DNA from: an uncultured bacterium
GTDB lineage: Bacteria; Chloroflexota; Dormibacteria; Aeolococcales; Aeolococcaceae
Reading direction: 5' to 3'
Assembly: GCA_963847225.1 (NCBI GenBank)
Contig: CAWJYZ010000005.1
Span: 745,648-809,647 of the forward strand
DNA length: 64,000 bases
Part shown: positions 16,731-42,012 of the stretch, piece by piece
Layout: every line of letters begins with the position of its first letter
Position numbering within the stretch: position 1 is the stretch's first letter
Notes under the pieces: generated by a model
Databases searched by the model: none
What the model was told of the DNA's origin: nothing
Seen by the model: the letters and a program-made list of their open reading frames with translations, nothing else
Program-made: the position numbers and the translations under genes

Positions 16731-17249
16731 ATGACGGACAACGAGAGCGGCGTCGATCTCTCTGGCCTGCATCGCGAGCTCGATCGGCTCAAGGCCCAGC
16801 TCTGCCGCTGCGGCCACCAGGGGACGTGCCTCGCCTGCCAGGGCTTCGAGGTGGTGCGCCAGCAGGCCCAGGCGGTGGCCGCGGCGGCTTCGCAGCCCGT
16901 GCTCATGCAGGTGGCCCAGGAGGCGGCCATCCGCGATCTCTTCAGCCAGCTCGGTGGGCTGCAGGAGAAGCTCACCGGCGACCCCCAGCTCTCCGACCTC
17001 ATGGCCCGCTTCGCGGAGCGGGTGCAGGAGGACCTCGGCGGCCCGCAGGAGCTGGAGAGGCTCCTCCGCGGCTTGGGCCTGGGCGGGCCCCGGGGACCGT
17101 TTGGCGAAGCCGGCCCGCCGAGCCCGCCCGGTCCGCTGCCGTACGACGACCGTCCCGCGCGTCCCTCGCCCCCGACCCACCCACCCGGGGAGGATGAGGG
17201 CTCGCCTCAGTCTCCCTCGGACGGCGACGAGCCTCCTCCGGCCGCCTGA
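16731..17249 (+). CDS. Hypothetical protein with CxC...CxxC cluster and Pro-rich C-terminus
   Basis: High GC3 coding bias. CRCGHQGTCLACQG is a putative zinc ribbon. It overlaps the 3' end of the convergent regulator gene by ~40 nt. Weak. Confidence 0.35.
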   Translation: MTDNESGVDLSGLHRELDRLKAQLCRCGHQGTCLACQGFEVVRQQAQAVAAAASQPVLMQVAQEAAIRDLFSQLGGLQEKLTGDPQLSDLMARFAERVQEDLGGPQELERLLRGLGLGGPRGPFGEAGPPSPPGPLPYDDRPARPSPPTHPPGEDEGSPQSPSDGDEPPPAA

Positions 17250-18268
17250 TCAGCTTCCCCCGCCTCTTCCACCAGCCCGACGAGGTGGCCCGCCACCTGG
17301 CGGAGCGCCTCCCTTCGTACCGTGAGCGCTCGCCGCCCCCCGCGCGGCGTGAGCTCCACCAGCCCGGCGTCGCGCAGCAGCTTGACGTGATTGCTGACGG
17401 TGGGTTGGGCCAGCGAGAAGGCCTCGGCGAGCTCGGTGACGGTGCTGGGCTCGCAGCTCAGGTGCTCCAGCATGGCCAGCCGGGTGGGGTCGGCGATGCT
17501 TTTGAGCTGACGGGCGAGCTGCTCGCCCCGGGCCTTGGCCTCGGCGGCACCGCCGAGAGCCGGGATGCCGATCAGCACCGTCCCCGGGAGATCCATGTAG
17601 GCGTAGCCGGTGAGGTGGGCGAAGTAAGCCGGGATCACCGCCACCACGCCGCCGGGCGGGAGGGCCGACACCAGGCCCACGGTTCGCGCCTTGAGCGGCT
17701 TCGTCGGGGGGCGCGCCACCTCCTGCCAGGGGGCTGAGCGCCGCTGCAGCTCGCGGCGCGCCTTGACCATGGCCTCCACCGCCGGCCACCCCCGCCGTCG
17801 CCACGCCGGGCCGATGACCGCCCAGAGGTCACGGACCAGCTCGGCGTAGCCGCCGCGGAATTCGACCGAGGAACGCAGCCGCTCCAGCCGCCGCAGGATG
17901 GTCGCGCGAGCGTCCTCCGTCTCCGAAGCCAGGGGGAGGTCGGTGGGCACGGCGGCGGCCAGGGCCTCGAGCCGGTTGAGAAGCTGGTCGGGGTCGGTGC
18001 TGAAGAGCAGCCCGCCCCGGTGGGCGAGGATGGCGAGCTCCATCGCGCCCCAGAGCGGGGCTTCCTCCGGCTCCCAGAGGGAGCGCACTCTCCTCTCCAT
18101 CTCCGGTGAGCTCGCGTAGAGCTGGACGAGCTCCGGGTGGTCGCCGCGAACCAGGAGGTTGGAGGCGGCGAGCATGGCGTAGTCGAGCTCGACGGCGATC
18201 GACCCTCCGATCCGGAGCTCGGGAGCGGCGTCGCCGGAGCGCCCCTCGTAGTCGATCGGCATAGCCAC
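17207..18268 (-). CDS. ArsR-family wHTH transcriptional regulator with large N-terminal domain
   Basis: The C-terminal SIADPTRLAMLEHLSCEPSTVTELAEAFSLAQPTVSNHVKLLRDAGLV is a canonical ArsR/SmtB HTH. The N-terminal ~250 aa are uncharacterised. Confidence 0.65.
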   Translation of the reverse strand: MAMPIDYEGRSGDAAPELRIGGSIAVELDYAMLAASNLLVRGDHPELVQLYASSPEMERRVRSLWEPEEAPLWGAMELAILAHRGGLLFSTDPDQLLNRLEALAAAVPTDLPLASETEDARATILRRLERLRSSVEFRGGYAELVRDLWAVIGPAWRRRGWPAVEAMVKARRELQRRSAPWQEVARPPTKPLKARTVGLVSALPPGGVVAVIPAYFAHLTGYAYMDLPGTVLIGIPALGGAAEAKARGEQLARQLKSIADPTRLAMLEHLSCEPSTVTELAEAFSLAQPTVSNHVKLLRDAGLVELTPRGGRRALTVRREALRQVAGHLVGLVEEAGEADQAAGGGSSPSEGD

Positions 18269-18475
18269 TTGACTATATCAGCCTGAGGCTTGACTTTCAG
18301 GCATGCCTATGGCAAAATGCAGATATGGCTATGAACCCATGGATCCTCGAACAACTCATCCGGGCGCGGACCGACGAACTGCGGCGCCTCAGCGAGGCGC
18401 GCCGCTTTCAGGAGGCTGGGCTGGCGGGGCTCGGAACCTCCTCCAGGCTGGCGGCAGCCTCTAAGCTTCCCGGGA

Positions 18476-19216
18476 ATGGCTCTGGCAGCCGGTGGCGCGC
18501 CCTGGGCCGCGCTCTCGTGGCGCGTCGAGCAGGCTGACTGCCTGAACCTCCTCGGCGGGCTGGGTGACGCATCGGTCGACTGCATCGTCACCGATCCCGC
18601 CTACTCCGGCATGAACCGGCACATGAAGTTCGGCCATGGGCGCATCGTCGGACGCTACGCCGATCCCGGTAACCCGCGCTGGTTCCCGGAGTTCCAGGAC
18701 GACCCGACGACGTTCGCCCGCTTCCTCGAGGAGTGCCACCGGGTGCTCCGCCCCGACCGGCACATCTACGTGATGTTCAACTCCTTCTCCCTCCTCAGCC
18801 TCGGCGCCCTGATGCGTGATCGCTTCGCGGTGAAGGGCATCGTGGTGTGGGACAAGGTGAACATCGGGATGGGCCACTACTTCCGGCGGCAGCATGAGCT
18901 CATCATCTTCGCCGGCAAGGGGCAGCGACGCCTGCGCCGGCGTGACCTCGGCGATGTCTGGCGCATCAAGCGCATTCACCGGGCTGCGTATCCGACCCAG
19001 AAGCCGGTCGAGCTCTTCACCCGCATGCTGTCGGGAAGCGTGGAGCCGAGCATGACGGTGTGCGACCCCTTCTGCGGAAGTGGCAGCTCGGCGGTCGCCG
19101 CCCTCGCCGCCGACTGCCACTTCGTGGGTGGCGACGTGAGCACCGCCGCGGTTGAGCTCACCCGCCGACGCTGCACCGCCTTTACCGCGACGGGAAAGGA
19201 TCTGTTCGCCCGCTAG
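18476..19216 (+). CDS. DNA methyltransferase, beta-class (N6-adenine or N4-cytosine), orphan
   Basis: Motif IV-like IVTDPAYS precedes YPTQKPVELF and motif I VCDPFCGSGSS. This order is diagnostic of the beta class (M.RsrI/CcrM-like). Confidence 0.8.
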   Translation: MALAAGGAPWAALSWRVEQADCLNLLGGLGDASVDCIVTDPAYSGMNRHMKFGHGRIVGRYADPGNPRWFPEFQDDPTTFARFLEECHRVLRPDRHIYVMFNSFSLLSLGALMRDRFAVKGIVVWDKVNIGMGHYFRRQHELIIFAGKGQRRLRRRDLGDVWRIKRIHRAAYPTQKPVELFTRMLSGSVEPSMTVCDPFCGSGSSAVAALAADCHFVGGDVSTAAVELTRRRCTAFTATGKDLFAR

Positions 19217-19230
19217 ACAGAGGTGAAGGG

Positions 19231-20247
19231 ATGGACGTCACCGGCTGGCTGTTGGAATCTGATCCAGCGATCCGCTGGCAGGTGATGCGCGACCTCACCG
19301 ATGCACCCGAGGGGGAGATCGCGGCCGAGCGCGCCCGCGTCGCGACCGAGGGATGGGGCGCATGCCTGCTCGGCCTGCAGCGCCAGGATGGCCAGTGGGA
19401 TGGGGGCACTCCCGCGTTCACCTCCCCGGCCGCGACGACCTGGTGGCAATCCCTGCCACCCGAGAGCCGAGGAACCCTCTTCCCCGAATGGACCTCCACG
19501 ACCTGGAGCTTGGTGCTGTTGCGGGCATTCGGTCTTGAAGCTGCCAGCCCCGCAGCGCGGCGCGCCATCCGCCTGGTCCGTGAGCACTGTCGATGGGAGC
19601 ACGACGGCGAGCCCTTCTTCGCGGGCGAGGTGGAGCCATGCATCAACGGCCGCACGGTTGCCCTCGGCGCCTACTTCGGCGAGGACGTCTCGGGCATCAT
19701 CGACCGGCTCCTCGGCGAGCAGATGGTGGATGGCGGCTGGAACTGTGAGCAGGAGAAGGGATCGACGCGGGGATCGTTCCACAGCACGATCGAGGTGGTG
19801 GAAGGCCTGCTGGAGTACGGACGAGCCACGGGCGGCCCATCGGAAGTGAGCGCTGCCCGCCTCCGCGGTGAGGCATACCTCCTCGATCGGCGCATGCGTC
19901 ACAGGCTGTCGACCGGTGAGGTGATTGACCAGGACCGAACAACCGGTCGGCCTGCGACCTGGACGCAGTTCTCCTACCCCACCTACTGGCACTACGACGT
20001 GCTCCGAGGCCTCGATTATCTGCGCGCGGCTGGCGTCGCTCCGGACGACCGGGTGGCGGAAGCGATCGATGTGGTCGAGTCCAAGCGCGCTGCGGACGGT
20101 CGCTGGGCCCTTGAGAACCCCCATCCGGGCAGGGTGTACTTCGAGATGGATGAGGGTGAGGGTAGACCGAGCCGCTGGAACACCCTCCGGGCCATGCGGG
20201 TGCTCAGGTGGTACCAGCAGCCTCGACAAATCGGACTCCCCGGCTAG
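19231..20247 (+). CDS. Alpha/alpha-toroid protein with prenyltransferase/squalene-cyclase-type repeats
   Basis: Repeated QxxDG(G/Q)W motifs (LQRQDGQWDGG, EQMVDGGWNCE, KRAADGRWALE) are followed by aromatic/Leu patterns (YWHYDVLRGLDYL). It starts 15 bp after the MTase stop. Confidence 0.55.
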   Translation: MDVTGWLLESDPAIRWQVMRDLTDAPEGEIAAERARVATEGWGACLLGLQRQDGQWDGGTPAFTSPAATTWWQSLPPESRGTLFPEWTSTTWSLVLLRAFGLEAASPAARRAIRLVREHCRWEHDGEPFFAGEVEPCINGRTVALGAYFGEDVSGIIDRLLGEQMVDGGWNCEQEKGSTRGSFHSTIEVVEGLLEYGRATGGPSEVSAARLRGEAYLLDRRMRHRLSTGEVIDQDRTTGRPATWTQFSYPTYWHYDVLRGLDYLRAAGVAPDDRVAEAIDVVESKRAADGRWALENPHPGRVYFEMDEGEGRPSRWNTLRAMRVLRWYQQPRQIGLPG

Positions 20248-20311
20248 CTGAGCGGCGGCTTGACGGTGAGAACCGGCGCCGGGACGACCCTGCGGACTCA
20301 CGGCGGTTTTA

Positions 20312-20362
20312 AAGGTCACGTTAAAGGTCATGTCCGCGGGAAGTGACCTTTAACGTGACCTT
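20312..20362. promoter_or_regulatory. 51-bp perfect palindrome (19-bp arms AAGGTCACGTTAAAGGTCA / TGACCTTTAACGTGACCTT, 13-nt spacer)
   Basis: Read directly from the sequence. Each arm itself contains a direct repeat of AAAGGTCA. It lies between the convergent toroid-protein and amt genes. Confidence 0.8.
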
Positions 20363-20440
20363 GACTTCTCTGCTTCTACCGCATGTGCCGCACCGCGGCT
20401 TCTCGGATGTCCTGAGGGAAGGGCCTGTCCCTCCGATCCC

Positions 20441-21811
20441 CTACGAGGCTTCGGCGAAGACCGGTTCCGGCATCCCGATTTGCGGCGCGCCGGGGTACGG
20501 CTCGAGGTCGATGGCCACCTCGCCGTGCACCTGCTCGTCGCCGACACGGAGGTGAGCCTCCGGCGCCTGCAGCGGGACCACGAGACCGACGAGCTTGATG
20601 ATGACGAAGGTGGCCACCCCATCGAAGGCGATGATGAAGAGCAGCGCCAGGGCCTGGATGCCGAGGAGCTTGGGGTTGCCGAAGGCGAGGCCGGTGTCGG
20701 AGACGTTGTTCTTGAGACCGGGGGCGCCGTACACGATCATCGCCGGGTTGGCGAAAACGCCGGTGAGGAGACCGCCCAGGGCGCCGGCCACGCCATGCGT
20801 GTGCAGCACGCCGAGGGTGTCGTCGACCCGGCGGAAGATGGCGAGCCGCGCTGCGAAGTTGATGCTGAGCCAGGGCAGCGTGCCGGCGGCGAGGCCGATG
20901 ATGATGGCCGCCCAGCCGTCGACGAAGCCCGCCGCCGGAGTGATGGCCACGAGGCCGGCGATCATCCCGTTGATGGCGCCGGCGATGCTCGGCCGCTTGA
21001 ACCGCAGATAGTCCCACAGCACCCAGGTGAGGAGCGCAGTGGCCGTGCAGAGATGGGTGTTGACGATCGCTGCCGCGGCGTCGGCGTTGGCGAAGTAGGG
21101 ATCACCGCCATTGAAGCCGCTCCAGCCAAGCCACAGGAGGCCGCCGCCCGCCACCGCCAGCATGAGGTTGCTGGGCGACGAGTGCTGCCGGTCGCGAAGG
21201 AGCCGCGGGCCCACCACCGCGGCGGCCACGAAACCGGAGACGGCGGCTGCCACGTGGATGACGTAGCCCCCGCTGTAGTCGAGGGCTCCGAGCGACGACA
21301 GCCAGCCGCCGCCCCAGATGCTGAAGGCTCCGACCGAGTAGACGAGGGTGATCCACAGCGGCACGAAGAGGATCCAGGCCCGGAAGTTGATGCGGCCGAG
21401 GAGGGCGCCACCCAGGATGATCACGGTGATCGCAGCGAAGACGAACTGGAAGTAGACCATCGAGCTCATCGGGAAGCGCAGGGCGGGGATGAGCCCGGTG
21501 AGCAGGGGGATCGATGCTTGCTTGGTGAGGTCAGCGGCGCTGAGCACCGGGGCCGGCGTGCCCACCGCCGTGAAGCTGTGACTGATCGGATGCCCGAAGC
21601 TCATGTTGTAGGCGAAGAGGGTCCAGACGATGAGCGTCATGGCGAAGGCGTAGAGCACCATGAGCGCGGAGTTCACCGCCCACTTCCGCTTCATGAGCCC
21701 GGCGTAGAGGATGGCGAGGCCGGGGACGCTCATGATCCCCACCAACGTCGCCGCGGTGAGCTGCCAGGCGTTGTCGCCAGGATTCAACCAGCTGGGATCA
21801 GCGGTGGGCAT
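20441..21811 (-). CDS. amt: Ammonium transporter
   Basis: The N-terminus (NAWQLTAATLVGIMSVPGLAILYAGL) matches AmtB and the protein is 11-TM; 456 aa. Confidence 0.9.
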   Translation of the reverse strand: MPTADPSWLNPGDNAWQLTAATLVGIMSVPGLAILYAGLMKRKWAVNSALMVLYAFAMTLIVWTLFAYNMSFGHPISHSFTAVGTPAPVLSAADLTKQASIPLLTGLIPALRFPMSSMVYFQFVFAAITVIILGGALLGRINFRAWILFVPLWITLVYSVGAFSIWGGGWLSSLGALDYSGGYVIHVAAAVSGFVAAAVVGPRLLRDRQHSSPSNLMLAVAGGGLLWLGWSGFNGGDPYFANADAAAAIVNTHLCTATALLTWVLWDYLRFKRPSIAGAINGMIAGLVAITPAAGFVDGWAAIIIGLAAGTLPWLSINFAARLAIFRRVDDTLGVLHTHGVAGALGGLLTGVFANPAMIVYGAPGLKNNVSDTGLAFGNPKLLGIQALALLFIIAFDGVATFVIIKLVGLVVPLQAPEAHLRVGDEQVHGEVAIDLEPYPGAPQIGMPEPVFAEAS

Positions 21812-22247
21812 GATGACGCTCGACCTCCCATGCGGTCCGGATGGCCGGACCGTGTCTCACCTCTCAGAGAGGCTAGGCGTCGCGGCGGTGCCGAGATAGG
21901 TGCTCGCCGCACAACCGCAGCCCACCGAACTTTGTGCCCGACCGCTTTTCGCGCAGGATCGTCTCGCTGCGGCCGGCGGAGGTGCGCCTGGCCGCCCGGG
22001 CTATGGAACCGGCGAGCTAGCTGCTCGGTGGCTGGGGCTGCGCCGACCCGGTGCTGATCACCGTCTCCGCGGCGGGGAGGATCTCCCCCCAGGCATCGCG
22101 GTGCGCCGCGCCACTGTGGTAGTCCTGCTCGGTGCCGGTCTGGATGCGGCTAGAGTCCGGCGAGCACGGGAAGGGTGAGAAGCGGAAGAGCGCGGAGAAG
22201 GTGGAGAGCGCGGAGATGGCCGGGGAGGGCGTCCCCTGAGCGACAAC

Positions 22248-27087: not shown

Positions 27088-28877
27088 TCCCCTTTCGGGC
27101 TCGGTCGCGGCTCCTCTCGCTCGCGCTGGGGATAGCCGTCGTGGGCGCCTCCTTGGTCCTCTCCGGCTGCTTCGCGGCTCCACCGCAGATCGTCGCCCTC
27201 ATCCCGCCCGACGGGTCCACCCACCTCGACGCCGACACCCCGGTGGAGGTCTTCTTCGACCAGGCAGTCCGGCCCGCGAGCGTCGCCGCCAGCTTCGACA
27301 TCTGTGCCGGTGCGAACGGATGCCAGAGCGGCCTCCCCGGCTGCAGCGATCTCGCCTCGGCCTTCCAAGCAGCTCCCAGCGCCGCTTGCTGGGTGAGTTG
27401 GTTGAGCGATCACTCAGGCTTTGTGTTTCACCATCATGGCCCGGCGCTCTTCGCCCCCAACACAAAGTACGAGTTCAGCCTCAGGGCGGGGGTGGCGTCC
27501 ACCGCGGGGACGGTCAACAGCCTCGACCACGTCTGGAACCTCACGAGCGCCCCCGCACCCACCCTCACCTCCTCGACGCCGGGGAGCGGCCAGACCGGTT
27601 TCCCCCGCGACGGCGCCATCTCCCTTTCCTTCTCCCACCCCATGAAGGCATCGGCGCTGGCCGCCGCGGTCTCGCTTTCTCCCGCCGCGCCCGGGGTCCG
27701 CGTCATCGCTGACCCGAAAGACCCTGCCTCCTTCGAGGTCGTGCCGCGCCAGCCCTTGGCCCCCGATACCGACTACACCATGAGGCTGAGCCGCAAGGCG
27801 ACGGACGCCCACGGCCAACCCCTGGCCCGGGAGATCAGCATCCGCTTCCGCACCGGGGCGCTCGCCGCCGGGTCCCAGGCCCTGGTCCTCGCCGGCCGGC
27901 AGGGGGAGGGTGCGACCGAGGTCCTTCTCGCGCCGCTCTCCACAGCGCCCACCTCCCTTCCCATCCCTGCCGAGGTGGTGGCCCAGGCTCCCCCCTGCCG
28001 GGCCGCCGCGGGCTGCGAAGGAGCTCCCCAGGGAGGGGCCACCGCCTCTTTCGAGCAGGCGGCGATCTCACCGGGCAGCCTTTGGCTGGCCCTCGTGGAG
28101 ACCGATCCGGCCACCCCGCAGTCGACCCAGCTGCACATCCTGGATCTGGCCTCGGGCCACGAGCAGATCGCCTTCCAGAGTGCCCAATGGCCGAGCTGGT
28201 CGCCGGATGGCTCGACCCTGGCCTTCGTGAGCGGCGGGAGAGAGGTCGAGCTCTACCAGCCTGGCAGCGGCTCGCTCACCTCTCTGATGAGCGGCCTCCC
28301 CCCCTCCGGAACGCCGGTGTGGACCGGCTCCGGGGACACGCTCGCCATCCCGGTGGCGGCCAAGGACGGCTCGGTGGCGCGCATCGACCTCGCCACCCCT
28401 GCCCTGGACGCCCGCTACCCTCTGCCCGGACTGACTGGTGCGGCGAGCCGTATCGTGGCCGCGCCCTCCGGTCAGGAGATCGCGGTGGCGCTCCAGCCTC
28501 CCGGGGGGTCCACGACGACATGGGTGGCCAAGCCCGCCGGCTCGCGCGCCCCCCAGCACCTCGCCGCGGCGGCCCTTCCCGTCGGGTTCGTCGACAGCGC
28601 CACCCTCATCGCGGTGGAGCGCTCCGCCAGCGGCGCCTCCCAACTGGTCCGCATCGACCTGGGCAGTGGCGCGACCGCGCCGCTCGCCGCCCCGAAGCTG
28701 CATCCGGATCTGAACACCGCGGCGGTCGCCCCCGACGGCCGCCAGATCGCCTATCTCGCCACCGCTGGGGCAGGGCAGGCGGAGGCCATCGTCGCCAACG
28801 CCGATGGGACCGGCGCCCTCCCCATCGTCTTACCCGAGAGCGGCCTCGTCCCCATCGCCATCAGCCTCGGAGCCTAG
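27084..28877 (+). CDS. Lipoprotein with Ig-like (SbsA/BIG-type) N-terminal domains and TolB-like beta-propeller C-terminal region
   Basis: Signal peptide plus lipobox LVLSGC. PDGSTHLDADTPVEVFFDQAV resembles Ig-like repeats. The C-terminus has WSPDGSTLAF / APDGRQIAYL propeller blades. TTG start overlapping the upstream stop. Confidence 0.6.
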   Translation: MIPFRARSRLLSLALGIAVVGASLVLSGCFAAPPQIVALIPPDGSTHLDADTPVEVFFDQAVRPASVAASFDICAGANGCQSGLPGCSDLASAFQAAPSAACWVSWLSDHSGFVFHHHGPALFAPNTKYEFSLRAGVASTAGTVNSLDHVWNLTSAPAPTLTSSTPGSGQTGFPRDGAISLSFSHPMKASALAAAVSLSPAAPGVRVIADPKDPASFEVVPRQPLAPDTDYTMRLSRKATDAHGQPLAREISIRFRTGALAAGSQALVLAGRQGEGATEVLLAPLSTAPTSLPIPAEVVAQAPPCRAAAGCEGAPQGGATASFEQAAISPGSLWLALVETDPATPQSTQLHILDLASGHEQIAFQSAQWPSWSPDGSTLAFVSGGREVELYQPGSGSLTSLMSGLPPSGTPVWTGSGDTLAIPVAAKDGSVARIDLATPALDARYPLPGLTGAASRIVAAPSGQEIAVALQPPGGSTTTWVAKPAGSRAPQHLAAAALPVGFVDSATLIAVERSASGASQLVRIDLGSGATAPLAAPKLHPDLNTAAVAPDGRQIAYLATAGAGQAEAIVANADGTGALPIVLPESGLVPIAISLGA

Positions 28878-28879
28878 CC

Positions 28880-30049
28880 GTGGCCCGGCGACTCCTCTTC
28901 CTCATCGCCGACACCGGGGGCGCCCACCGCTCCTTCGCGAACGCTGTTTCCCACCGCCTGGCCTTCTCTCATCCTGGCGAGTTCGAGGTGGCGATCGTCG
29001 ACCCCTTCGCCTCGCGGCCCCACGGGACGGTACCGGCGAAGAGCTCAGAGGCTGCCGGCGACCAGGCCACCGGCAGAGCCACCCGCCTCTACGGTCCGAT
29101 CACGGTGCACGCCCCCTGGCTGTGGGGAGGTCTCTGGCACGCCACCAACTCCCGGCCGGCGGCGGCCCTGATCGAGGCCACCCTGCGGGTCGTCGACCGC
29201 AACATCGTGCGCTGGCTCCGGGCTCTGGAGCCCGCGGCGATCGTCTCCTTCCATCCCCTCCTCGGCCACCCCGCCGCCCGGGCACGCCATTACCTGGGGC
29301 TGACCGCCCCGGTCTTGAGCGTCGTCACCGACCTGGTCGACGTCCATGCCCTCTGGGCTTCCCCGCAGGTTGATCTCGTCGTCGTGCCCTCGCCGATCGC
29401 GCTCGACCGGTGTCTGCGCAACGGCGTCCCCGCCGAGCGCTTGGCGCGCGTTGGTCTGCCCGTCGACCCCGCCTTCCAGCCGGCCGGCGAGGCGCAACGG
29501 CGCCACCTGCGCGAGACACTTGGACTCGCCGCAGACCGCTTCACGGTGCTTCTCTGCGGGGGCGCCGACGGCTCCGGCAATCTCACCCATTGGGCGCAGC
29601 TCATCGCCGGCAGTCAGTCCGACATCAACCTCATCACTGTCTGCGGGCACAACGGACGCGCCCGACGAGCCCTCGAAGGTCTCCGGGACAGGCATGGCAA
29701 ACCGGTCGCCGTCCTCGGTTTCGTCGACAACATGGCGGAGTGGATGCGAGCCTCCGACGTGGTGGTGACCAAGGCCGGCGCCGGAACGGTGGCCGAGGCG
29801 CTCTGCTGCGGCCTTCCTCTTCTCATCGTCTGGTTCATCCCCGGCCAGGAGCGGGGCAACATGGAGTGGGTCGTGGCGGGTGGCGCCGGGCGCTACGTCC
29901 CCGCCGATCAGGAGCTGCTGCGCGAGCTCGGCGAGCTCTCGCGCCCCGGTTCCGAGGGCCTCGCTGCGCTCAGTGCCGCGGCTGGCCGCCTGGCTCAGCC
30001 TCGGGCCGCCGAGGAGGTCGCCGAAATGATCCGTTCCCTCGCCCGATGA
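28880..30049 (+). CDS. GT28-family glycosyltransferase, MGDG-synthase/UgtP-like (diacylglycerol glycosyltransferase)
   Basis: The N-terminal RRLLFLIADTGGAHR matches the MGDG_synth family signature. C-terminal GT-B domain. Confidence 0.7.
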   Translation: MARRLLFLIADTGGAHRSFANAVSHRLAFSHPGEFEVAIVDPFASRPHGTVPAKSSEAAGDQATGRATRLYGPITVHAPWLWGGLWHATNSRPAAALIEATLRVVDRNIVRWLRALEPAAIVSFHPLLGHPAARARHYLGLTAPVLSVVTDLVDVHALWASPQVDLVVVPSPIALDRCLRNGVPAERLARVGLPVDPAFQPAGEAQRRHLRETLGLAADRFTVLLCGGADGSGNLTHWAQLIAGSQSDINLITVCGHNGRARRALEGLRDRHGKPVAVLGFVDNMAEWMRASDVVVTKAGAGTVAEALCCGLPLLIVWFIPGQERGNMEWVVAGGAGRYVPADQELLRELGELSRPGSEGLAALSAAAGRLAQPRAAEEVAEMIRSLAR

Positions 30050-31227
30050 GCTCCGGGGTCATCGCCTCGCCGCCATCGGTGCGTGCCGAGATCACCCGCC
30101 TCCGCCTCTACAACTTCCGCAACTACGGCGAGCTGACGGTCGAGCTCGGAGATGGCGTGAACGTCTTCAGCGGGGAGAACGCCCAGGGCAAGACCAACCT
30201 CCTGGAGGCGGTCGCCACCCTTCTTCTCACCCGGTCACCGCGGGCGACGTCACCCGCCGAGCTCATTCGCTGGGGAGAGGAGGAGGCCGCTGTTGACGCC
30301 CTGGTCACCCGCGGTCTCCGCCACGAGACCCTCGGGCTCCGCCTTCGCCTTCGCCCGCAGCCAGAGGCCGGCTCCACGGTGCGGCCCCGAGCCGTACGCA
30401 CCTCGCTCGCTGAGAGCAAGCCCATCCCGGCCCGGGAGGTGCTGGGGCGCTGCCCCGTCGTCCTCTTCTGGCCCGACGACCTCCAGCTCGTGAAGTCGGG
30501 GCCGGAGATGCGACGGCGGCTCACCGATACCCTCCTCAGCCAGCTCGATCGCAAGGCCGGCGACGATCTGCTCCGCTTCCGCCGCGCTCTCCAGCAGCGC
30601 AACGCTCTCCTCCACCAGCTCCGAAGCGGCGCCGGTGACGATCACCTCGCCCCGTTCGACGCCGCGCTATCCCGCCACGGCGCGGCGGTGCAGCGGGCGC
30701 GTCGCGAGATCGTCGAGGGCCTGGCCCCGATCGCCGCCGCGACGATGCGCGACCTCACCGGGGGCCGGGAGGAGCTCTCCCTGCGCTACCGTCCGGACGC
30801 TTCCGACGGCGCGACCACCGAAGAGGAGATGGCCGTGGCTCTGAGCCAAGCTCTCCGGCGCCTCCGGCCCGAGGAGTTGGCCCGCGGCATCACACTGGCT
30901 GGCCCTCACCGTGATGACGTCGAGTACCTCATCGACGGGCGCCCGGCGCGTCTCACCGCCTCCCAGGGGCAGCAGCGCAGCGCGGTGCTGGCCACCAAGC
31001 TCGCCGAGCTCCGCTACGCGCACCAGCGGACCGGGGCGATTCCGCTCCTTCTCCTCGATGACGTCTTCAGCGAGCTGGACCAGCAGCGCCGCACCCAGCT
31101 CGTCGCTGCCGTGACGAGTGGGCCGGACTCACCCCAGAGCCTCATCACCACCGCCGAGCCCGTCGACCTCGGTGGTCCGCGCGAGCGCCACTTCCTCGTC
31201 CGCCGCGGCACGGTCGCGCCGCGATGA
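30046..31227 (+). CDS. recF: DNA replication and repair protein RecF
   Basis: ITRLRLYNFRNY, Walker A GENAQGKTNLLEA and LLLDDVFSELD (Walker B/D-loop). The start ATG overlaps the upstream stop. Confidence 0.85.
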   Translation: MSSGVIASPPSVRAEITRLRLYNFRNYGELTVELGDGVNVFSGENAQGKTNLLEAVATLLLTRSPRATSPAELIRWGEEEAAVDALVTRGLRHETLGLRLRLRPQPEAGSTVRPRAVRTSLAESKPIPAREVLGRCPVVLFWPDDLQLVKSGPEMRRRLTDTLLSQLDRKAGDDLLRFRRALQQRNALLHQLRSGAGDDHLAPFDAALSRHGAAVQRARREIVEGLAPIAAATMRDLTGGREELSLRYRPDASDGATTEEEMAVALSQALRRLRPEELARGITLAGPHRDDVEYLIDGRPARLTASQGQQRSAVLATKLAELRYAHQRTGAIPLLLLDDVFSELDQQRRTQLVAAVTSGPDSPQSLITTAEPVDLGGPRERHFLVRRGTVAPR

Positions 31228-31547
31228 CCGGGTCCCACCGGCCCCGCGACAAGCGTGGCGACCCCCAGCACATCGCCGGTCTCCTCGACACCGCGCTCCG
31301 GGAGCTGGGGGTGCGCCGGCAGATCCGCGAGCTCCAGCTCCGCGAGGCGTTCGCCGCCGTCGTCGGTCCGGCCCTCGCCTCCCTCTGCGAGGCCATCTCA
31401 TTGGAGCGCGGCACCCTCCTCGTGGCCACCCGAAACGGCGCCCTGGCTCAGCAGCTGCAGCTGGAGATGCCGGTCATCACCGCCGAGCTCAACCGGCGCT
31501 TGGGCGGCGATCAGGTGCGCCGCCTTCGCTTCACCGCGCTCAGCTGA
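31224..31547 (+). CDS. DUF721 family protein (recF-gyrB spacer gene)
   Basis: ~107 aa with the typical conserved position after recF. Start overlaps the recF stop. Confidence 0.65.
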   Translation: MTGSHRPRDKRGDPQHIAGLLDTALRELGVRRQIRELQLREAFAAVVGPALASLCEAISLERGTLLVATRNGALAQQLQLEMPVITAELNRRLGGDQVRRLRFTALS

Positions 31548-31553
31548 GCTGCT

Positions 31554-32672
31554 CTACGGAACTCGCACCGGCATGATCACGGACAGGAAGTCGTCTCGCC
31601 CGTGGGGGCGGAAGGCGGCCGGCTGCAGCGGCCCGTTGAAGCCGAGCTGGACCTCCTCGGCGTCGATGGCCTGCAGAGCGTCCAGAAGGTAGCGGGCGTT
31701 GAAGGAGACCTGTACATCGTCTCCCTCCACGGTGGCCGGGAGTGGCGCGTCGTGGTCACCGACCTCCGCCGTCTGAGCGCGTAGCTCGAGCTCGCCGGAC
31801 CCGGCGTGGAGACGGAGGGGATTGGCGGCGTCGCGAGCCAGCACCGATGCCGTGCGGGCGCTCTTCAGGAGGAGGGCGGTGGGCAGGACGACGGTCGTGG
31901 AGGACTGGGAGGGGATGACCTGCGCGTAGTTGGGGTAGTTGCCCTCGATGAGGCGAGAGGCGATCTCGATGTCGCGAAGACGGAAGAAGATCTGGTTCCG
32001 GTTGTCGCTGAAGGCGATGCCCAGCTTGGGGCGGCTCGGGTTGACCGCGCGGGCGACCTCTCCGAGGTGCCGGGCGGGGACGATGACGCTGCCGGTGTGC
32101 AGACCCGCCTCCCGGATCTCGACCGCAAGCGTCTTCACGGCGAGGCGATGGCGGTCTGTCGCCACCATGGTCATCCTCTCACCCTCGATGTGGAGGAGCA
32201 CGCCGGTCAGAACCGGGGTCTGCTCGTCCCCGGAGGCGGCCACCGAGGTCTGAGCGACACCCAGCTGGAACTGCGCGGCGTCCACCTCCACCGCGGGCTC
32301 GCTCTCCCGAGCTGGGATGGGCGGGAACTCCACGGCGTCGATGCCGTGGAGATTGGTCCGCTGCGCCGCGTTGCTGATGCGGAGGATCTGCGTCCGCTCC
32401 TCCACCTCCATCCGGCAGGGCGACTCGTCGAGGGAAGCCACGTACTCGCTGAGGAGACGGGCGGGAACGGTGATGCGGCCCTCCTCCTCGACCGTGGCGG
32501 GCACCACCGCGCTGATGGTGAGATCGAGGTTGGTGGCGGTCACCCGCAGCCCGCCGCTGTCCGTCTCCAGAAGAACGTTGCTGAGCACGGGGAGCGTCGA
32601 TCGCGGGGATACGGCTCTCGAGACCAGGTTGAGCATGGCGCTGAGAGCGGATGGTGAGACGGTGCACTTCAT
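31554..32672 (-). CDS. dnaN: DNA polymerase III beta sliding clamp
   Basis: MKCTVSPSALSAMLNLVSRAV start and three-domain clamp pattern, ~373 aa. The ATG was verified. Confidence 0.9.
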   Translation of the reverse strand: MKCTVSPSALSAMLNLVSRAVSPRSTLPVLSNVLLETDSGGLRVTATNLDLTISAVVPATVEEEGRITVPARLLSEYVASLDESPCRMEVEERTQILRISNAAQRTNLHGIDAVEFPPIPARESEPAVEVDAAQFQLGVAQTSVAASGDEQTPVLTGVLLHIEGERMTMVATDRHRLAVKTLAVEIREAGLHTGSVIVPARHLGEVARAVNPSRPKLGIAFSDNRNQIFFRLRDIEIASRLIEGNYPNYAQVIPSQSSTTVVLPTALLLKSARTASVLARDAANPLRLHAGSGELELRAQTAEVGDHDAPLPATVEGDDVQVSFNARYLLDALQAIDAEEVQLGFNGPLQPAAFRPHGRDDFLSVIMPVRVP

Positions 32673-32921
32673 GGCGGAGCCGGTGGCGACGTCGGTGGGC
32701 CAGTTGTTCACCCGAGGGGACTCCTTGAGGGGGACGAGTTTATTGAGAAGAGGTAGTTAACCGAAGTGGGCAAACCGGGGAGAACCCGGCCGTTTGAATT
32801 GGGCGCCCTGTGGAGAACTGGCGCCTGCCTGTGGAGGGGCAGGGGGCTTTGGCTGGGGTTTTGCTCAGGGAAGGCGGGCTGGGGCGATCCTCCACAGGCT
32901 CCCCGGAAGCTCTCCACAGGA
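32673..32921. promoter_or_regulatory. Candidate oriC: DnaA-box cluster plus AT-rich unwinding element in dnaA-dnaN intergenic region
   Basis: Four YCTCCACAG 9-mers: 32808-32816 and 32829-32837 on the bottom strand, 32889-32897 and 32911-32919 on the top strand. Also TTGTTCACC at ~32704 and an AT-rich stretch gagtttattgagaagaggtagttaacc at 32737-32763. Confidence 0.6.
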
Positions 32922-34337
32922 TTACCCCTCGGACTCCGTGTGGTTGTGAAGGCGCTGTCGGAGCTGGCGGATGTCGCTCTGGAGGCGGACGTCCTCCCGG
33001 AGGAGCTCGCTGATCTTCTCGATGGCGTGGAGCGCGGTGGTGTGGTCGCGCCCGCCGAAGGCATCCCCCACCACGGGCAGGGAGGACTCCGTCTCCTCGC
33101 GGATGAGGAACATGGCGACCTGGCGGGGAAAGACGATGTGCTTGTCGCGGCGCTTGCTCTTCATCTCCTCCACGCTGATCCCGTAGTGGCCCGCCACCGT
33201 GGCTTGGATGAAAGGAATCGTGAGCGGCTGCACGTCGGCCACGGGAATGATGTCGCGGAGAATGCGCTGCGAGGTTTCCAGAGTGATGGCGTGGCCGTTG
33301 ATGGAGGCGTGGGCGAGGACTCGGATCAGCGCCCCCTCCAGCTCGCGGATGTTCTTCTGGATCCGGTGAGCGATGAAGCTGACAACCTCGTCGGGGACGA
33401 GGCGGGAGTGGGGGCCGAGCTTGCTCTTGAGGATGGCCAGGCGGGTCTCGAACTCGGGTGGCTGGATGTCAGCCATGAGGCCCCCTTCGAAGCGGCTACG
33501 CAGCCGGTCCTCGAGGGTGGGAATTTCCTTGGGCGGCCGGTCGCTGCTCACCACGATCTGCTTCTGGATGTCGTGGAGTGCGTTGAAGGTGTGAAAGAAC
33601 TCCTCCTGGGTGCGGTCCTTCCCGGCCAGGAACTGAATATCGTCGATGAGCAGCACGTCGACACTGCGGTAGCGATGCCGGAACTCTGTGGTCTTGTTCT
33701 CGAGGATGGACTCCACGACCTCGTTGGTGAACTTCTCAGAGGTCACGTAGGCGACCTTGGGGGAGCGGCGGTGTCCCTCTCGCACGGCGTGCCCGATGGC
33801 GTGCATGAGGTGGGTCTTGCCCAGGCCCACGCCGCCGTACAGGAAGAGCGGGTTGTAGGCCTTCCCGGGAGCCTCCGCCACCGCTCGGCAGGCGGCGTGG
33901 GCGAAGCGCGAGGAGGTGCCGACGACGAAGCTCTGGAAGGTGAAATTTGGATTGAGCCGCGTCTCCCCGGCGGGGGACAGGTCGGTCTCGGGGGCGAGGT
34001 CGGAGTCCGGCAGTGGAGCGGGCTCGTCGCGAGCGGGCACCGCGGTGGGGTCGACGGTGATCTCCACGGTGCAGTCGCGGCCGATGAGGCTGGAGATGAT
34101 CTCCTGGATGACGGAGACGAAGCGCTCGGAGACCCAGTCTCGCGCCAGCCGCGTCGGCACCCCGATGAGGAAGCGCTCGCCGTCGCTCTCCACGAGGGTG
34201 GCGGTGGCCAGCCAGGTCTCGTAGCTGGGACGGGCGAGCTGGAAACGCAGCTCCTCCTGGGCCGCGGCCCAGACCTGCTGTCCTGGCGGGCGTTCGCTGA
34301 CGCCGAGGGCGGCGCCATCGTCAGCTCCGAGCGTCAC
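32922..34337 (-). CDS. dnaA: Chromosomal replication initiator DnaA
   Basis: AAA+ Walker A GGVGLGKTHLMHAIGH, DnaA box-binding C-terminus (VGDAFGGRDHTTALHAIEKI), 471 aa. Confidence 0.92.
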   Translation of the reverse strand: MTLGADDGAALGVSERPPGQQVWAAAQEELRFQLARPSYETWLATATLVESDGERFLIGVPTRLARDWVSERFVSVIQEIISSLIGRDCTVEITVDPTAVPARDEPAPLPDSDLAPETDLSPAGETRLNPNFTFQSFVVGTSSRFAHAACRAVAEAPGKAYNPLFLYGGVGLGKTHLMHAIGHAVREGHRRSPKVAYVTSEKFTNEVVESILENKTTEFRHRYRSVDVLLIDDIQFLAGKDRTQEEFFHTFNALHDIQKQIVVSSDRPPKEIPTLEDRLRSRFEGGLMADIQPPEFETRLAILKSKLGPHSRLVPDEVVSFIAHRIQKNIRELEGALIRVLAHASINGHAITLETSQRILRDIIPVADVQPLTIPFIQATVAGHYGISVEEMKSKRRDKHIVFPRQVAMFLIREETESSLPVVGDAFGGRDHTTALHAIEKISELLREDVRLQSDIRQLRQRLHNHTESEG

Positions 34338-34832
34338 GCTTTACCTGTCGACCCGCATCGGCCAACGCCGAAGCCGCACCTCTGTCCTCCGCGTGCCGCC
34401 GTGATCACTCCAGTTGTCCACAGGTTGTGAACAAGAGTGGAAAAATCGCGGCGCCGCTGCCGGACGGGGCGGGTCAGGGACGACGCCTTGAGGGAGCCTG
34501 TCCCGCCGGAGCACCCGCCAGTCTAGCAATGCCGGAGGCGGCCGACAACGAGTCGCGCCGGCCGTTCTTGGCGGAGCCCTGGCCAGGTCCGGTCGAGGTC
34601 TGGGGGGATCGCCAGGGCTGGCGATGACCGTGGCCGCCCCGGTCACCGTTCGGGGAATGAGGGGGCGGAGCCCCGCCGGAAAAGGTGAAGGCGGAGGCGG
34701 GAGCCAGAGCGCCGGGGGATTCGGGGCAGAGCCCCCCGCATGGGTATACTGACCGGGATTCCCGCCACCCGGCGCTGGCTCTGGCATGCCCGCGGGTGGA
34801 GATTCCTCGAAGTTCCGTGCAGGAGAGCTGGC

Positions 34833-34980
34833 ATCAAGCGGACCTATCAGCCGAAGAAGGCGTACCGGCGCAAGAACTCACGGCTTCCGTATCCGGATGG
34901 CGACACCCGGTGGGCGGAACGTGCTCAAGGCCCGCCGCCTCAAGGGCCGCAAGCGCCTGACCCCCGCCGGGCCGCGCTGA
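34833..34980 (+). CDS. rpmH: 50S ribosomal protein L34 (apparent 1-nt deletion and non-canonical start)
   Basis: (G)[14 protein letters not shown] in one frame continues as [30 protein letters not shown] in the +1 frame. An aggaga SD lies 6 nt upstream of the ATC Ile codon that occupies the expected ATG position. Confidence 0.7.
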
Positions 34981-34994
34981 CGGCCGTACGAGGT

Positions 34995-35390
34995 CTGCGT
35001 GGACGCGGTCACTTCGCCTCCATCCGTGCCGGGCGCTGCCAGGGGCGGTCCGGTCCGCTCCGGATCTTCGCCGCCGCCAATGGGGGTGACGAGGGCGCCC
35101 TGGGCCTGGCCACGCCGAGGATGCCGGGAGCCGTCCCCCGCAACCGGCTGCGCCGCCGCCTCCGCGCCGCCTGCCGCGGCATCATGGCGATGGGCGGGTA
35201 CGACCTCATCGTGAGCGCCGACCCGGAGGCCCTGACCCTTCCCTTCATGGAGCTGCAGGAGCACGTGGAGCGCGCGGCGCGGGCCGCGCTGGCCCGGGCG
35301 GGGACAAAGGCCACCCCCAAGGGCGATGCGGGCGAGCCGCCTCGCGGCGCCCCGTCCCCCCGGAGCAGCGGCGGGAGCCCTCGCGGATGA
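34995..35390 (+). CDS. rnpA: RNase P protein component
   Basis: AVPRNRLRRRLRAACR matches the RnpA RNR motif. No canonical start codon is found in frame near the expected position, so the start is uncertain. Confidence 0.6.
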   Translation: MRGRGHFASIRAGRCQGRSGPLRIFAAANGGDEGALGLATPRMPGAVPRNRLRRRLRAACRGIMAMGGYDLIVSADPEALTLPFMELQEHVERAARAALARAGTKATPKGDAGEPPRGAPSPRSSGGSPRG

Positions 35391-35680
35391 AAAGGCTCAG
35401 CCTCCTTTTGATCCGCATCTACCAGCACAGTCTCAGCCCGGTGTTCGGCGCCATGAGCAGCTGCCGCTACGAGCCCACCTGCTCGCAGTACACCCTCGAG
35501 GCCATCAGCCGCTTCGGGGCCCGGCGCGGGTGGTGGTTGGGGGTGCGCCGGATCGCCCGCTGCCAGCCCTTCTACCCGGGCGGTATGGACCCGGTGCCCG
35601 ACACCTATGTCACCTGGCGCGCGGCGCGCCGGCGGCGGCGTGAGGCGCGGCTCGCCGCCCCGAGGTCCCTCGCACCGTGA
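35387..35680 (+). CDS. yidD: Membrane protein insertion efficiency factor YidD
   Basis: IRIYQHSLSPVFG...CRYEPTCSQYTLEAI is the canonical YidD sequence. Confidence 0.8.
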   Translation: MKRLSLLLIRIYQHSLSPVFGAMSSCRYEPTCSQYTLEAISRFGARRGWWLGVRRIARCQPFYPGGMDPVPDTYVTWRAARRRRREARLAAPRSLAP

Positions 35681-36759
35681 TCGGCGCCGCCGACCTCAAC
35701 CCCATCGACGCCGTCGCGTTCCTCATCAGCGTTCTCCGCTACCCCGTTGGCTGGCTGATCGAGAAGCTCAGCGAGATCTTCAACGCGGTCGGCCCGCTGC
35801 AGTGGATCGGCTCCGTCGGACTGGCCATCATCGTGGTGACGCTGCTCATCCGCGGCCTCCTCTTCCCCATCTTCCGCTGGAACATCCGCACCCAGCGCCG
35901 CGTGCAGCGCGACCAGCGTCGCCTCTCGCCCCTCATCAACGAGATGCGCCGCAAGTACAAGGGCAACAACCAGAAGATCTACGAGGAGCAGCGCCGGATC
36001 TACGCCGAGCACGGGGTGAGCATGTTCAGCCCCATGTCGGGGTGCCTGCCCCTCCTCGTCCAGCTGCCGGTGCTCTACGGGCTGTACTGGGCGGTGCGCG
36101 ACGTCATCGGGCTCGACGCCACCAAGACATCGCACCCCCGCATCACCTTCGACCTTCTCCCCGCCAGCATCGGCCACAACTTCCTGTGGATCCACAACGT
36201 CGGGCTGACCATCGGTCAGGAGATCCAGAACTGCGCCGCGACGCAGACCGTGTGCCACACGAACTGGGCCAATCTCGTGGTGCACCCGGCCAACATCGCG
36301 CTCCTCATCCTGCCCGTCCTCACCGGCATCACCTACTTCGTGCAGTCGAAGATGACCATGCAGCCGCTCCGGCCGGACATGAGCGACACGGAGCGGCAGA
36401 TGGCCTCGTCGATGCGCACGATCGTGTACTTCATGCCGCTGATGAGCCTCTTCTTCTGCTTCATCTGGCCGCAGGCCCTCACTCTCTACTGGCTCACCGC
36501 GGCGCTGGTGATGGTGGGGCAGCAGTTTGGCCTCATGGGTTGGGGGTCGCTGCGCGTGCCGCCGTGGTTCCCGGGCGCGCAGCGGGTCACCGAGCTGTCG
36601 TACCAGAAGGCGGACTTCGCCCCGGCGGCGCAGGCCGCGGCGGCCTCGTCGAATGGGCAGGGCGCCCAGAAGAGGGTGGGGGTCACGCCGTTGCCCTCGG
36701 CTCCGGGAACGGGGCGGGCCCCGGCCCGGTCGCAGAGGAGAGCGAGACGGCGTCGCTAG
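35677..36759 (+). CDS. yidC: Membrane protein insertase YidC
   Basis: Short YidC of the Gram-positive type, with conserved TM core motifs (LPLLVQLPVLYGLYWAV). Confidence 0.85.
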   Translation: MIGAADLNPIDAVAFLISVLRYPVGWLIEKLSEIFNAVGPLQWIGSVGLAIIVVTLLIRGLLFPIFRWNIRTQRRVQRDQRRLSPLINEMRRKYKGNNQKIYEEQRRIYAEHGVSMFSPMSGCLPLLVQLPVLYGLYWAVRDVIGLDATKTSHPRITFDLLPASIGHNFLWIHNVGLTIGQEIQNCAATQTVCHTNWANLVVHPANIALLILPVLTGITYFVQSKMTMQPLRPDMSDTERQMASSMRTIVYFMPLMSLFFCFIWPQALTLYWLTAALVMVGQQFGLMGWGSLRVPPWFPGAQRVTELSYQKADFAPAAQAAAASSNGQGAQKRVGVTPLPSAPGTGRAPARSQRRARRRR

Positions 36760-36792
36760 GGAAGAGGGGCGGCACACGAGGGAGAGATCGAA

Positions 36793-37614
36793 TTGGCAGA
36801 AGGTGAGACGGCGGTGGTGGCGCAGGGCGCCGAGAGCGTGGAGAGCGCGGGGGCGACAGTGGAGGCGGCCATCGCCGCCGGCCTCGCCGAGCTCGGGGTG
36901 GGCGGCGACGAGGTGAGTGTCGAGGTGCTCGCCCGGCCCGCCGCGGCCCTCCCCGGGGAGCACGTCTCGGGGGTGAGCGAGGCCAGGGTGCGCCTCACCC
37001 GGCTGGACGAGCACACCCTGCGGGGCAGGGCGGTCCTCGTCGACCTCCTGGAGCGCATGGGGATCGCGGCGCGGGTGACCGTGCGCCGTCCCGCTCCCGG
37101 ACCGGCCGATGCCCCGGTCCCCTCCGTCCTGGACATCGCCGGTGATGACCTCGGCGTGCTCATCGGATGGCGTGGGGAGACGCTCCGCGCCCTGCAGACC
37201 GTCGTCAACCTCATGATGGGCGATGACGAGAGCGCCACCGGGCGCCGCCTCATCCTCGACGTGGAGCGCTATCGCCACCGCCGCGAGGAGCACGTCCGGG
37301 AGCTGGCGCTGCGGCTCGCCAACCGGGTGAAGCGGACCGGGCAGCGCTACACCCTCGATCCCATGCACGCCTACGAGCGGCGGGCCATCCATCTCGCCCT
37401 CGCCGAGGATGAGGGGGTGAGCACCGAGAGCATCGGCCGGGAGCCGGCGCGCCGGGTGGTGATCAATCCCACCGGTCCGGCGCAGCCCGACCTGCCCGAG
37501 CTGCCCGACCGCTTCGGGCGCCCGGCGCGCCGCCCCTTCGGGGGAGGAGGTGGACGGGATCGCGGCCGGGGCGGTGCTGGAGGCGGCGGCCGGCCGCGCT
37601 GGTCACGGTTCTGA
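36793..37614 (+). CDS. jag: Jag/KhpB R3H-domain RNA-binding protein
   Basis: Jag_N, KH-like (GDDLGVLIGWRGETLRALQ) and R3H (RRAIHLALAEDEGVSTESIG) motifs. Confidence 0.8.
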   Translation: MAEGETAVVAQGAESVESAGATVEAAIAAGLAELGVGGDEVSVEVLARPAAALPGEHVSGVSEARVRLTRLDEHTLRGRAVLVDLLERMGIAARVTVRRPAPGPADAPVPSVLDIAGDDLGVLIGWRGETLRALQTVVNLMMGDDESATGRRLILDVERYRHRREEHVRELALRLANRVKRTGQRYTLDPMHAYERRAIHLALAEDEGVSTESIGREPARRVVINPTGPAQPDLPELPDRFGRPARRPFGGGGGRDRGRGGAGGGGRPRWSRF

Positions 37615-37649
37615 GACCGCCCGGCGGGCGGTGGGCAGGGAAGGCTCAG

Positions 37650-38945: not shown

Positions 38946-38984
38946 GCGGCTGGACGCGCCGCGGGGCCGGATACGTCCCTGGGG

Positions 38985-39473: not shown

Positions 39474-39503
39474 GGGCTGCGCCAGGGACCGGTCCTGCCC
39501 GGC

Positions 39504-40341: not shown

Positions 40342-40469
40342 GGTTGGGAGTTTGCACGAAGTGCCGCCGAGCGGACGGCCGCCACGAGGAGGCTGGCCAC
40401 GGCCGCGATGGCGTCGCCGCCGGCCCTCCTCCCGGAGGATTGCGGCCCCCCGAATGGCGTTGTGCCGTC

Positions 40470-40871: not shown

Positions 40872-40918
40872 AGGGTGATCACGACTATCGGTTTAACCAT
40901 CAGGTAGGAGACCGTGCC

Positions 40919-41991: not shown

Positions 41992-42012
41992 GGCGCCGGC
42001 CGGTGAGCTAGC

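Follow-up and report, generated by a model that had tools for sequence, protein, structure and literature searches.

A GGTCA-box hairpin family beside amt in uncultured Dormibacteria, possibly REP-like, with one member between convergent genes

Inverted pairs of uptake sequences act as terminators in Neisseria and Haemophilus, where the motifs are hugely over-represented genome-wide. Site-specific recombinases use core and accessory sites in which direct and inverted repeats surround a central spacer, and the correction of quasi-palindromes by template switching is a known mutational process. REP sequences and REPINs frequently lie in the spacers of convergent gene pairs and serve there as terminators or as hairpins that stabilise RNA, and a REPIN combines two inverted REPs, each an imperfect palindrome, with a longer spacer (PMC3116915, PMC3337134). 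Here we describe a palindromic element at positions 20312-20362 of a 64,000-nucleotide stretch of DNA from an uncultured member of the Dormibacteria (the window). The reading that we prefer, tentatively, is that of a REP-like portable intergenic hairpin which serves at this locus as a terminator or 3'-end barrier for convergent transcripts.

Two 19-bp arms, AAGGTCACGTTAAAGGTCA (20312-20330) and TGACCTTTAACGTGACCTT (20344-20362), are exactly complementary and enclose a 13-nt centre, TGTCCGCGGGAAG (20331-20343), within which three further pairs (UCC/GGA) close a 3-nt loop. The GGTCA boxes of the left arm (20314-20318 and 20326-20330) and the TGACC boxes of the right arm (20344-20348 and 20356-20360) give the architecture GGTCA-N7-GGTCA-N13-TGACC-N7-TGACC, with two direct and two inverted half-sites that lie 12 bp apart within an arm, the inner boxes being 13 bp apart. 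Two 12-bp direct-repeat units, TTAAAGGTCAcg and TTAAAGGTCAtg (20309-20332), are spaced 12 bp within the left arm and are mirrored at 20342-20365; on the right the inner unit is exact and the outer one is altered to TCAAGGTCA. The whole of 20309-20365 reads TTAAAGGTCACGTTAAAGGTCA TGTCCGCGGGAAG TGACCTTTAACGTGACCTTGAC, and if two mismatched pairs beside the centre are admitted, then the arms lengthen to 24 nt with 92% complementarity and a 3-nt centre. A preliminary description of this DNA had reported a 51-bp perfect palindrome, each arm of which was itself a direct repeat. Its 19-bp arms are indeed free of mismatches, but the title was slightly overstated because of the two mismatched pairs that adjoin the centre, and the repeat is exact for the left arm and the right inner copy but not for the right outer copy. 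The remaining structural claims hold up. The element is AT-rich for its surroundings, with 49% GC overall and 42% in the arms against 71% in the window (72% had been given), twin spurious reading frames that start with (M/V)TFNVT are both present, and the flanking genes converge.

In length, no other clean inverted repeat of the hairpin type in the 64 kb approaches this palindrome. Its arm 19-mer has no third site in the window, where shuffled sequences give an expectation of 0.01 matches. The RNA hairpin alone is predicted to fold with -35.2 kcal/mol on the plus strand and -33.4 on the minus strand (about -22 as DNA), and with its flanks the element has RNA fold z-scores of -8.7 and -6.4. The palindrome recurs with identical sequence, and one SNP nearby, in an independent sample (Logan, ERR11594399). 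It is a real feature rather than a chance one. An assembly artefact is ruled out because the whole palindrome is contiguous in the window and in loci L099 and L108, which come from different assemblies. Both contigs of ERR11594399 break inside the palindrome. Short-read contigs from three assemblies end inside it or at most 8 nt from it (the ends of L001, L018 and L099), and the L102 contig ends inside the GC-rich hairpin that follows amt, so that assembly at this locus seems prone to break at strong hairpins. Elsewhere in the window, a second AT-rich inverted repeat, ACTCAGGCTTTGTGTT / AACACAAAGTACGAGT, with 16-nt arms, 81% complementarity and a 31-nt spacer (27412-27474), lies inside or at the start of a Big_5/PD40 gene.

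The element sits in a 193-nt convergent spacer, where it is the sole strong hairpin. Upstream on the plus strand are an N6/N4 DNA methyltransferase of 246 aa (18476-19216), whose counterpart in relatives is conserved as the convergent neighbour of amt, and a toroid-like gene of 338 aa (19231-20247), which belongs to no Pfam family, gives a faint oxidosqualene-cyclase repeat signal and represents an insertion, specific to this lineage, that separates the methylase from amt. The methylase is preceded by a minus-strand gene for an ArsR/SmtB-type helix-turn-helix protein of 353 aa (17207-18268). The spacer between these two divergent genes (18268-18476) falls to 49% GC and has no GGTCA boxes, and it contains back-to-back sigma-70-like promoter matches, TTGACT-17-CAAAAT on the plus strand and CTGAAA-17-TATAGT on the minus strand. 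On the other side of the palindrome, amt encodes an ammonium transporter of 456 aa on the minus strand (20441-21811). Homologues of the toroid protein, Amt and the methylase come from Candidatus Dormibacteria or Dormibacterota wherever a taxon is named.

The toroid stop codon is 64 nt from the palindrome and the amt stop codon 78 nt. Between the toroid gene and the palindrome, and abutting the left edge of the latter, is an imperfect A-tract/hairpin/T-tract structure (AGAACCGG...CGGTTTT, 20269-20310, plus strand). It is similar to the terminator behind the toroid homologue of L021 (AAAACCGCCG...CGGCGGTTTT), and this terminator-like tail therefore probably arrived with the toroid gene. Within it, the 11-mer CCTGCGGACTC (20289-20299, plus strand) is identical to one arm of the GC-rich hairpin that separates amt from the methylase in L108, and may be either a relic of an ancestral hairpin or a chance match. 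The 78-nt amt 3' region (20363-20440, minus strand) contains a short hairpin, GAGGGA/TCCCTC (20414-20433), just past the amt stop; the corresponding distance in L099 is a similar 80 nt, and the two sequences are partially similar. Most relatives also share a conserved block about 100-130 nt upstream of amt (21890-21945 of the window, minus strand), which reads CACAAA(G)-N17-TTGTGCGGCG.GCAC.TAT followed by CTAGCCTCT. The inverted repeat GCACAA/TTGTGC within it is a candidate operator or promoter element of amt.

The window covers the chromosomal origin region, with recF-like, DciA, dnaN, dnaA, rnpA, yidC, jag, parB and parA genes at 29410-43988, one consensus DnaA box at 34414 and a cumulative GC-skew minimum near dnaA at about 30-34 kb. 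A dif, terminus or origin signal was rejected as an identity of the palindrome, there being no GC-skew switch at 20.3 kb. A parS site was rejected as well: parS is a 16-bp palindrome (TGTTNCACGTGAAACA) with no internal spacer and is conserved among relatives, whereas the arms of the element enclose a 13-nt spacer and close relatives lack the element. No canonical parS (TGTTTCACGTGAAACA, at most 3 mismatches) occurs in these origin-proximal 64 kb. The sole CACGTG-centred near-palindrome, GCCGCCACGTGGCGCC (42188-42203), lies inside parB near its 3' end and may be a GC-rich parS variant. Two large neighbouring genes of the window (1310 and 1087 aa, 50127-57087) both combine a zinc ribbon with adenylate/guanylate cyclase, AAA_16 and TPR domains.

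Three homologous copies of the element were found: the window copy, one at 4101-4151 of L099 (JGI 3300054987) and one at 1056-1102 of L108. The L099 copy, AAGGTCCGTTTAAAGGTCA GGTCGCCGTGACT TGACCTTTAAACGGACCTT, lies 80 nt downstream of amt and has perfect 19-bp arms and a 13-nt centre; its contig stops 8 nt further on. The L108 copy, GGTCAGCTACATGGTCAGGTC TGCGC GACCTGACCATGTAGCTGACC, lies about 200 nt upstream of amt, between that gene and a divergent folP-like gene. None of the three is thus more than about 250 nt from amt, two of them lying downstream of the gene and one upstream. A search for perfect inverted repeats across 600 kb of Dormibacterota loci gave these three as its long repeats, together with a 120-nt perfect palindrome that begins a metagenome contig (L082, 1-120) and is almost certainly an assembly artefact. 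A covariance model, R1, was built from the three copies. With filters off it detected no copy in the 64-kb window beyond the known one, and it detected none in 486 kb of other Dormibacterota loci, which brings the tally to one copy in 64 kb of the window and two in about 40 kb of sister loci. The three copies known so far form a small, lineage-restricted hairpin family of closely related uncultured soil Dormibacteria.

All three copies have the same box architecture over about 51-55 bp, although the outer box of L099 is GGTCC, and the 13-nt centre keeps its length in L099 and L108 while its sequence changes. The N7 linkers are CGTTAAA, GTTTAAA and GCTACAT, and each is mirrored exactly within its own copy. 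In an alignment of the three, a 23-pair helix has 95.7% of its cells paired and six compensatory pairs. None of 500 shuffles matched the observed values, and sliding the partner by 1-3 columns reduced pairing to 16-45%. Across arms of 19-21 bp there is no uncompensated change in any copy. Mirrored change of this kind is what the pairing of a hairpin stem would demand, and the alignment indicates that the element is kept as a hairpin, of RNA or of single-stranded or cruciform DNA, with invariant GGTCA boxes. Conservation of the arms far exceeds that of neutral DNA, since the flanks between amt and the element are barely alignable between the window and L099. The invariant boxes and their fixed spacing suggest either that the primary sequence matters too or that the copies are too young to have diverged.

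The distribution of the element among relatives is patchy. By nucleotide identity of amt, the closest locus to the window is L109 (95.6%), followed by L108 (91.4%), L099 (90.4%) and L106/L107 (85.1%). The element is present downstream of amt in the window and L099 and absent from that site in L109 and L108, the L108 copy being elsewhere, a pattern that points to gain, loss or replacement rather than simple vertical descent. In L108, L109 (with L110), L106/L107 and L111, amt directly faces the methylase across 55-73 nt, and these spacers contain neither a toroid gene nor an AT-rich palindrome. Instead, a single GC-rich hairpin follows amt in each of them and also in L100 and L103, which are more distantly related. 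It follows that the toroid gene was inserted here recently and that the palindrome has taken the place of an ancestral GC-rich terminator-type hairpin. The intergenic regions of L108, L109, L106, L111 and L103 fold with -32 to -62 kcal/mol, and the 167-nt spacer of L100 with -101 overall, so that the palindrome alone, at -33 to -39 kcal/mol, is broadly as strong as the sister intergenic hairpins. Its stem of 19-24 bp and 42% GC differs from those of the clade's other hairpins, which have 12-14 bp and 71-93% GC. The sister hairpins after amt (L108 2684-2718, L100 7377-7409, L106 9384-9424 and L109 4598-4636) have different stems but a common loop region, GGAGCCGTG(C/A)CCTCC or GGAGCCGGGCTCTCC, and this conserved loop hints that they may be more than plain terminators. 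The whole folP-amt-methylase region is a plasticity zone in which almost every relative has a different inserted gene, among them AhpC, peptidase A4, TPR/zincin, acyl-CoA dehydrogenase and toroid genes.

If the preferred reading of a REP-like portable hairpin is correct, the element would be a short non-coding module, preserved as a perfect stem, that occurs at varying intergenic positions among related genomes. The RNA hairpin would be its active form, terminating or stabilising transcripts, and the family would spread by insertion or replacement. At the window locus the palindrome would lie within the 3' untranslated overlap of the methylase-toroid unit (plus strand) and the amt unit (minus strand), and transcription of either strand would yield a stem of about 20-24 bp. 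This stem would most likely end or pause transcription, or block 3'-exonucleases, and would thereby define the ends of the convergent messages. The preliminary description had offered a terminator, an AGGTCA operator and a recombination or cruciform site side by side; the mirrored linkers and the terminator-slot position now favour a reading at the level of the hairpin.

The three copies differ in how closely they resemble intrinsic terminators. A U-tract directly follows the stem on one strand in L108 (AUGUUUUUC) and, partially, in L099 (GUUUUC), and stem plus U-tract is the canonical terminator layout in both. The window copy has the stable hairpin past a stop codon that is expected of an intrinsic terminator but lacks the U-rich tract of 7-9 nt, its tails being GACUUCUCUGCUUCU on the plus strand and UAAAACCGCC on the minus strand. 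The T4 run to its left is part of the A-tract/hairpin/T-tract structure at 20269-20310, and a terminator scan did not call the window palindrome. Hairpins lacking a U-tract are not terminators for mycobacterial RNA polymerase (PMC3993855), and in view of the missing U-tract termination proper is therefore doubtful here; by analogy, the role may be to protect the 3' end and not to terminate. The L108 copy also speaks against a terminator role, since it lies between divergent genes and has no upstream gene to terminate. The REP-like status is likewise unproven with respect to multiple copies, because R1 found no more of them in the window or in the 486 kb.

Four invariant GGTCA boxes would be superfluous for a hairpin alone, and they are the main feature of an unlikely alternative in which the element is a binding array for a dimer-of-dimers protein that acts on amt or on origin-proximal DNA. 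Half-sites at fixed spacing are present in all three copies, where boxes, 12-bp period and 13-nt centre length are constant while linkers and centre sequence vary, and this much of the earlier operator proposal stands. All three copies flank amt, with a rough P of 0.003-0.02 under random intergenic placement in a sample that was itself gathered through amt. Intergenic (A/T)GGTCA arrays in phages (L114 and L016, the former with a 12-bp period) make array-reading proteins plausible by analogy, but these matches arose from pattern construction and the analogy is loose. A protein that reads half-sites needs no mirrored linkers, yet six linker pairs co-vary perfectly. The promoter location and the conservation with a gene that mark an operator are also absent: the copies in the window and in L099 are found at 3' ends, nothing promoter-like lies near the window copy, and the site is missing from five sister lineages, the closest relatives among them, in which amt, methylase, ArsR-like gene and response regulator are the same. 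In addition, the conserved candidate operator of amt, CACAAA-N17-TTGTGC, is different. The recombination proposal, in the form of an att-like junction or hot spot for the insertion of modules such as the toroid gene, we consider improbable. The toroid gene and its L021-like tail do stop exactly at the left edge of the palindrome, the gene content of the region is strongly variable, and direct plus inverted repeats around a spacer recall, by analogy, the core and accessory sites of recombinases. Against such a junction, a Pfam scan of 60 window reading frames detected no integrase, resolvase or transposase (nor a RAYT, the Y1 transposase), none of 80 other toroid loci has a downstream palindrome, the L108 copy adjoins no inserted gene, and the layout is not that of integron attC sites.

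It is about equally improbable that an ordinary terminator-type hairpin evolved in place, neither mobile nor part of a family and with an incidental composition. The position is the same as that of the sister-genome hairpins, the stability is similar, and hairpins turn over fast at this site, with a different stem in every relative. However, in-place evolution does not account for the same architecture at another site, upstream of amt in L108, or for a stem whose length and GC content are so unlike those of the clade. Least probable, in our judgement, is a functionless quasi-palindrome whose symmetry results from mutation, by intrastrand template switching or arm-to-arm correction, rather than from selection. 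Such a process would be consistent with zero mismatches in arms of 19-21 bp in three copies despite diverged linkers, but it leaves the invariant GGTCA boxes, the constant spacing and the two separate sites unexplained, and divergence is far greater in the flanks than in the arms.

Neither of the genomic associations implied by the preliminary description survives comparison with other loci. The 338-aa toroid protein has more than 8000 scored homologues, the best 120 of which are 76-84% identical. In the 82 toroid loci that were examined (L019-L098, L112 and L113) the neighbours differ and DNA alignment is limited to the gene itself. Among these, the 80 metagenome loci with toroid proteins of 55-82% identity have no AAGGTCA cluster, no methylase, ArsR or amt neighbours and no comparable downstream palindrome, and L112 and L113 similarly lack the window's neighbours and an AAGGTCA cluster. 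A link between palindrome and toroid gene was thus rejected, with the palindrome at 0 of 80 loci. L108 and L111 keep the ArsR-like gene beside the methylase without a downstream palindrome, on which grounds a link to either of these genes was rejected, and the suggested connection to the methylase/toroid operon and to an ArsR-type regulator is not supported.

Searches beyond the clade gave no relative of the element. The exact 19-mer has four single, non-palindromic matches in 185,579 species genomes (the source genome is not among them), all in unrelated taxa and at chance level. Plasmid and phage sequences gave no BLAST match to the element, and the window has no gathering-level match in Rfam 15, only chance-level matches to miRNA hairpins (best E 0.13). 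Literature on AAAGGTCA operators and on Dormibacterota palindromes yielded nothing relevant. Viral scans with three patterns returned no homologue: the inner inverted-repeat pattern had 0 matches, the degenerate 19-mer had 12, all single and non-palindromic (including L016 and L017), and one further hit was a TGGTCA array (L114). In the IMG/VR sequences L016 (5860-6130) and L017 (350-560), dense direct and inverted AAGGTCAAT box arrays occur just downstream of a 694-aa primase-helicase-like gene in AT-rich phage. They resemble origin iterons, owe their detection to pattern construction and probably have nothing to do with the window element. L114 (IMG/VR, 55% GC) is the only viral match to GGTCA-N7-GGTCA-N13-TGACC-N7-TGACC and has an intergenic (G)TGGTCA array at 800-905 with a 12-bp period, three direct boxes then two inverted. 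Its linkers are not mirrored, which points to a duplex binding array and not to a hairpin.

To our knowledge, almost nothing is known about the non-coding DNA, transcript ends and mobile elements of Dormibacterota, a phylum represented almost only by metagenomes. The three-copy GGTCA-box hairpin family is newly recognised, and we found no published Dormibacterota description of it. Its invariant boxes, co-varying stem and strain-level gain and loss offer a concrete handle on the elements of this phylum, and the family may turn out to be a miniature mobile element of a new kind. It could mark recent genome rearrangement near the replication origin, and it provides a test case for 3'-end formation in a 71% GC genome that is mostly without U-tract terminators. 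A more far-reaching proposal, which we regard as unlikely, is that the copies represent a previously undescribed class of Dormibacteria hairpins, with a dedicated transposase-like enzyme or regulator that reads stem and boxes and with homing to amt flanks or to terminator slots near the origin. If true, the copies would amount to a novel miniature mobile element or else to a structured site that controls ammonium transport in cis, in an uncultured phylum. If the palindrome is merely a replaced terminator hairpin, then the finding is an ordinary one, and its practical lesson is that the palindrome breaks short-read assemblies here.

The described systems can be compared with the element feature by feature. 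Iteron or operator arrays of phages and plasmids likewise have repeated (A/T)GGTCA boxes in both orientations, with a 12-bp period in L114, but the linkers in L016 and L114 are unmirrored, there is no hairpin, and the arrays lie beside replication or regulatory genes of unrelated phages with lower GC. Integron attC sites are also palindromes, imperfect ones, directly downstream of a promoterless inserted gene, and GTTAAAG and CTTTAAC in the element each match six of seven positions of the core consensus. An attC site (R''(RYYYAAC)...R'(GTTRRRY)) was rejected all the same: the core order is reversed, GTTAAAG preceding CTTTAAC on both strands, the stem is perfect and lacks extrahelical bases, boxes on the same arm are repeated directly and not in inverted orientation, the window reading frames scanned include no IntI or other integrase, and other toroid loci have no such site. 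Uptake-sequence pairs resemble the element in that a specific short motif forms inverted repeats that double as 3' hairpins. This identity was rejected on abundance, AAGGTCA occurring outside the element only three times in 64 kb, against an expectation of 2.1 for the whole window. The marks of a MITE were not seen: none of the three copies is flanked by a target-site duplication, no clean empty site was seen, and in the filled/empty comparison of L108 with the window upstream of amt the flanks are too diverged for an empty site to be aligned.

In its workings the element most resembles REP/REPIN hairpins and bidirectional terminators. Bidirectional intrinsic terminators share with the palindrome a stable hairpin between convergent genes, in the slot of a GC-rich hairpin, and the U-tracts of L108 and L099. 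They differ from it in having GC-rich stems that are usually 5-14 bp long, in contrast to the AT-rich 19-24 bp found here, and in the U-tract that is missing from the window copy. Set against REP and REPIN elements, the palindrome departs in its arms, which are 12-bp direct repeats and not palindromes, and in having no GTAG-type head; the 64 kb of the window contain one copy, where REPs reach many dispersed copies per genome. It has in common with them that it is a short, non-coding intergenic palindrome that can form a long hairpin, that it combines conserved blocks with a co-varying stem (PMC3116915, PMC3337134), and that it is patchily distributed among related strains.
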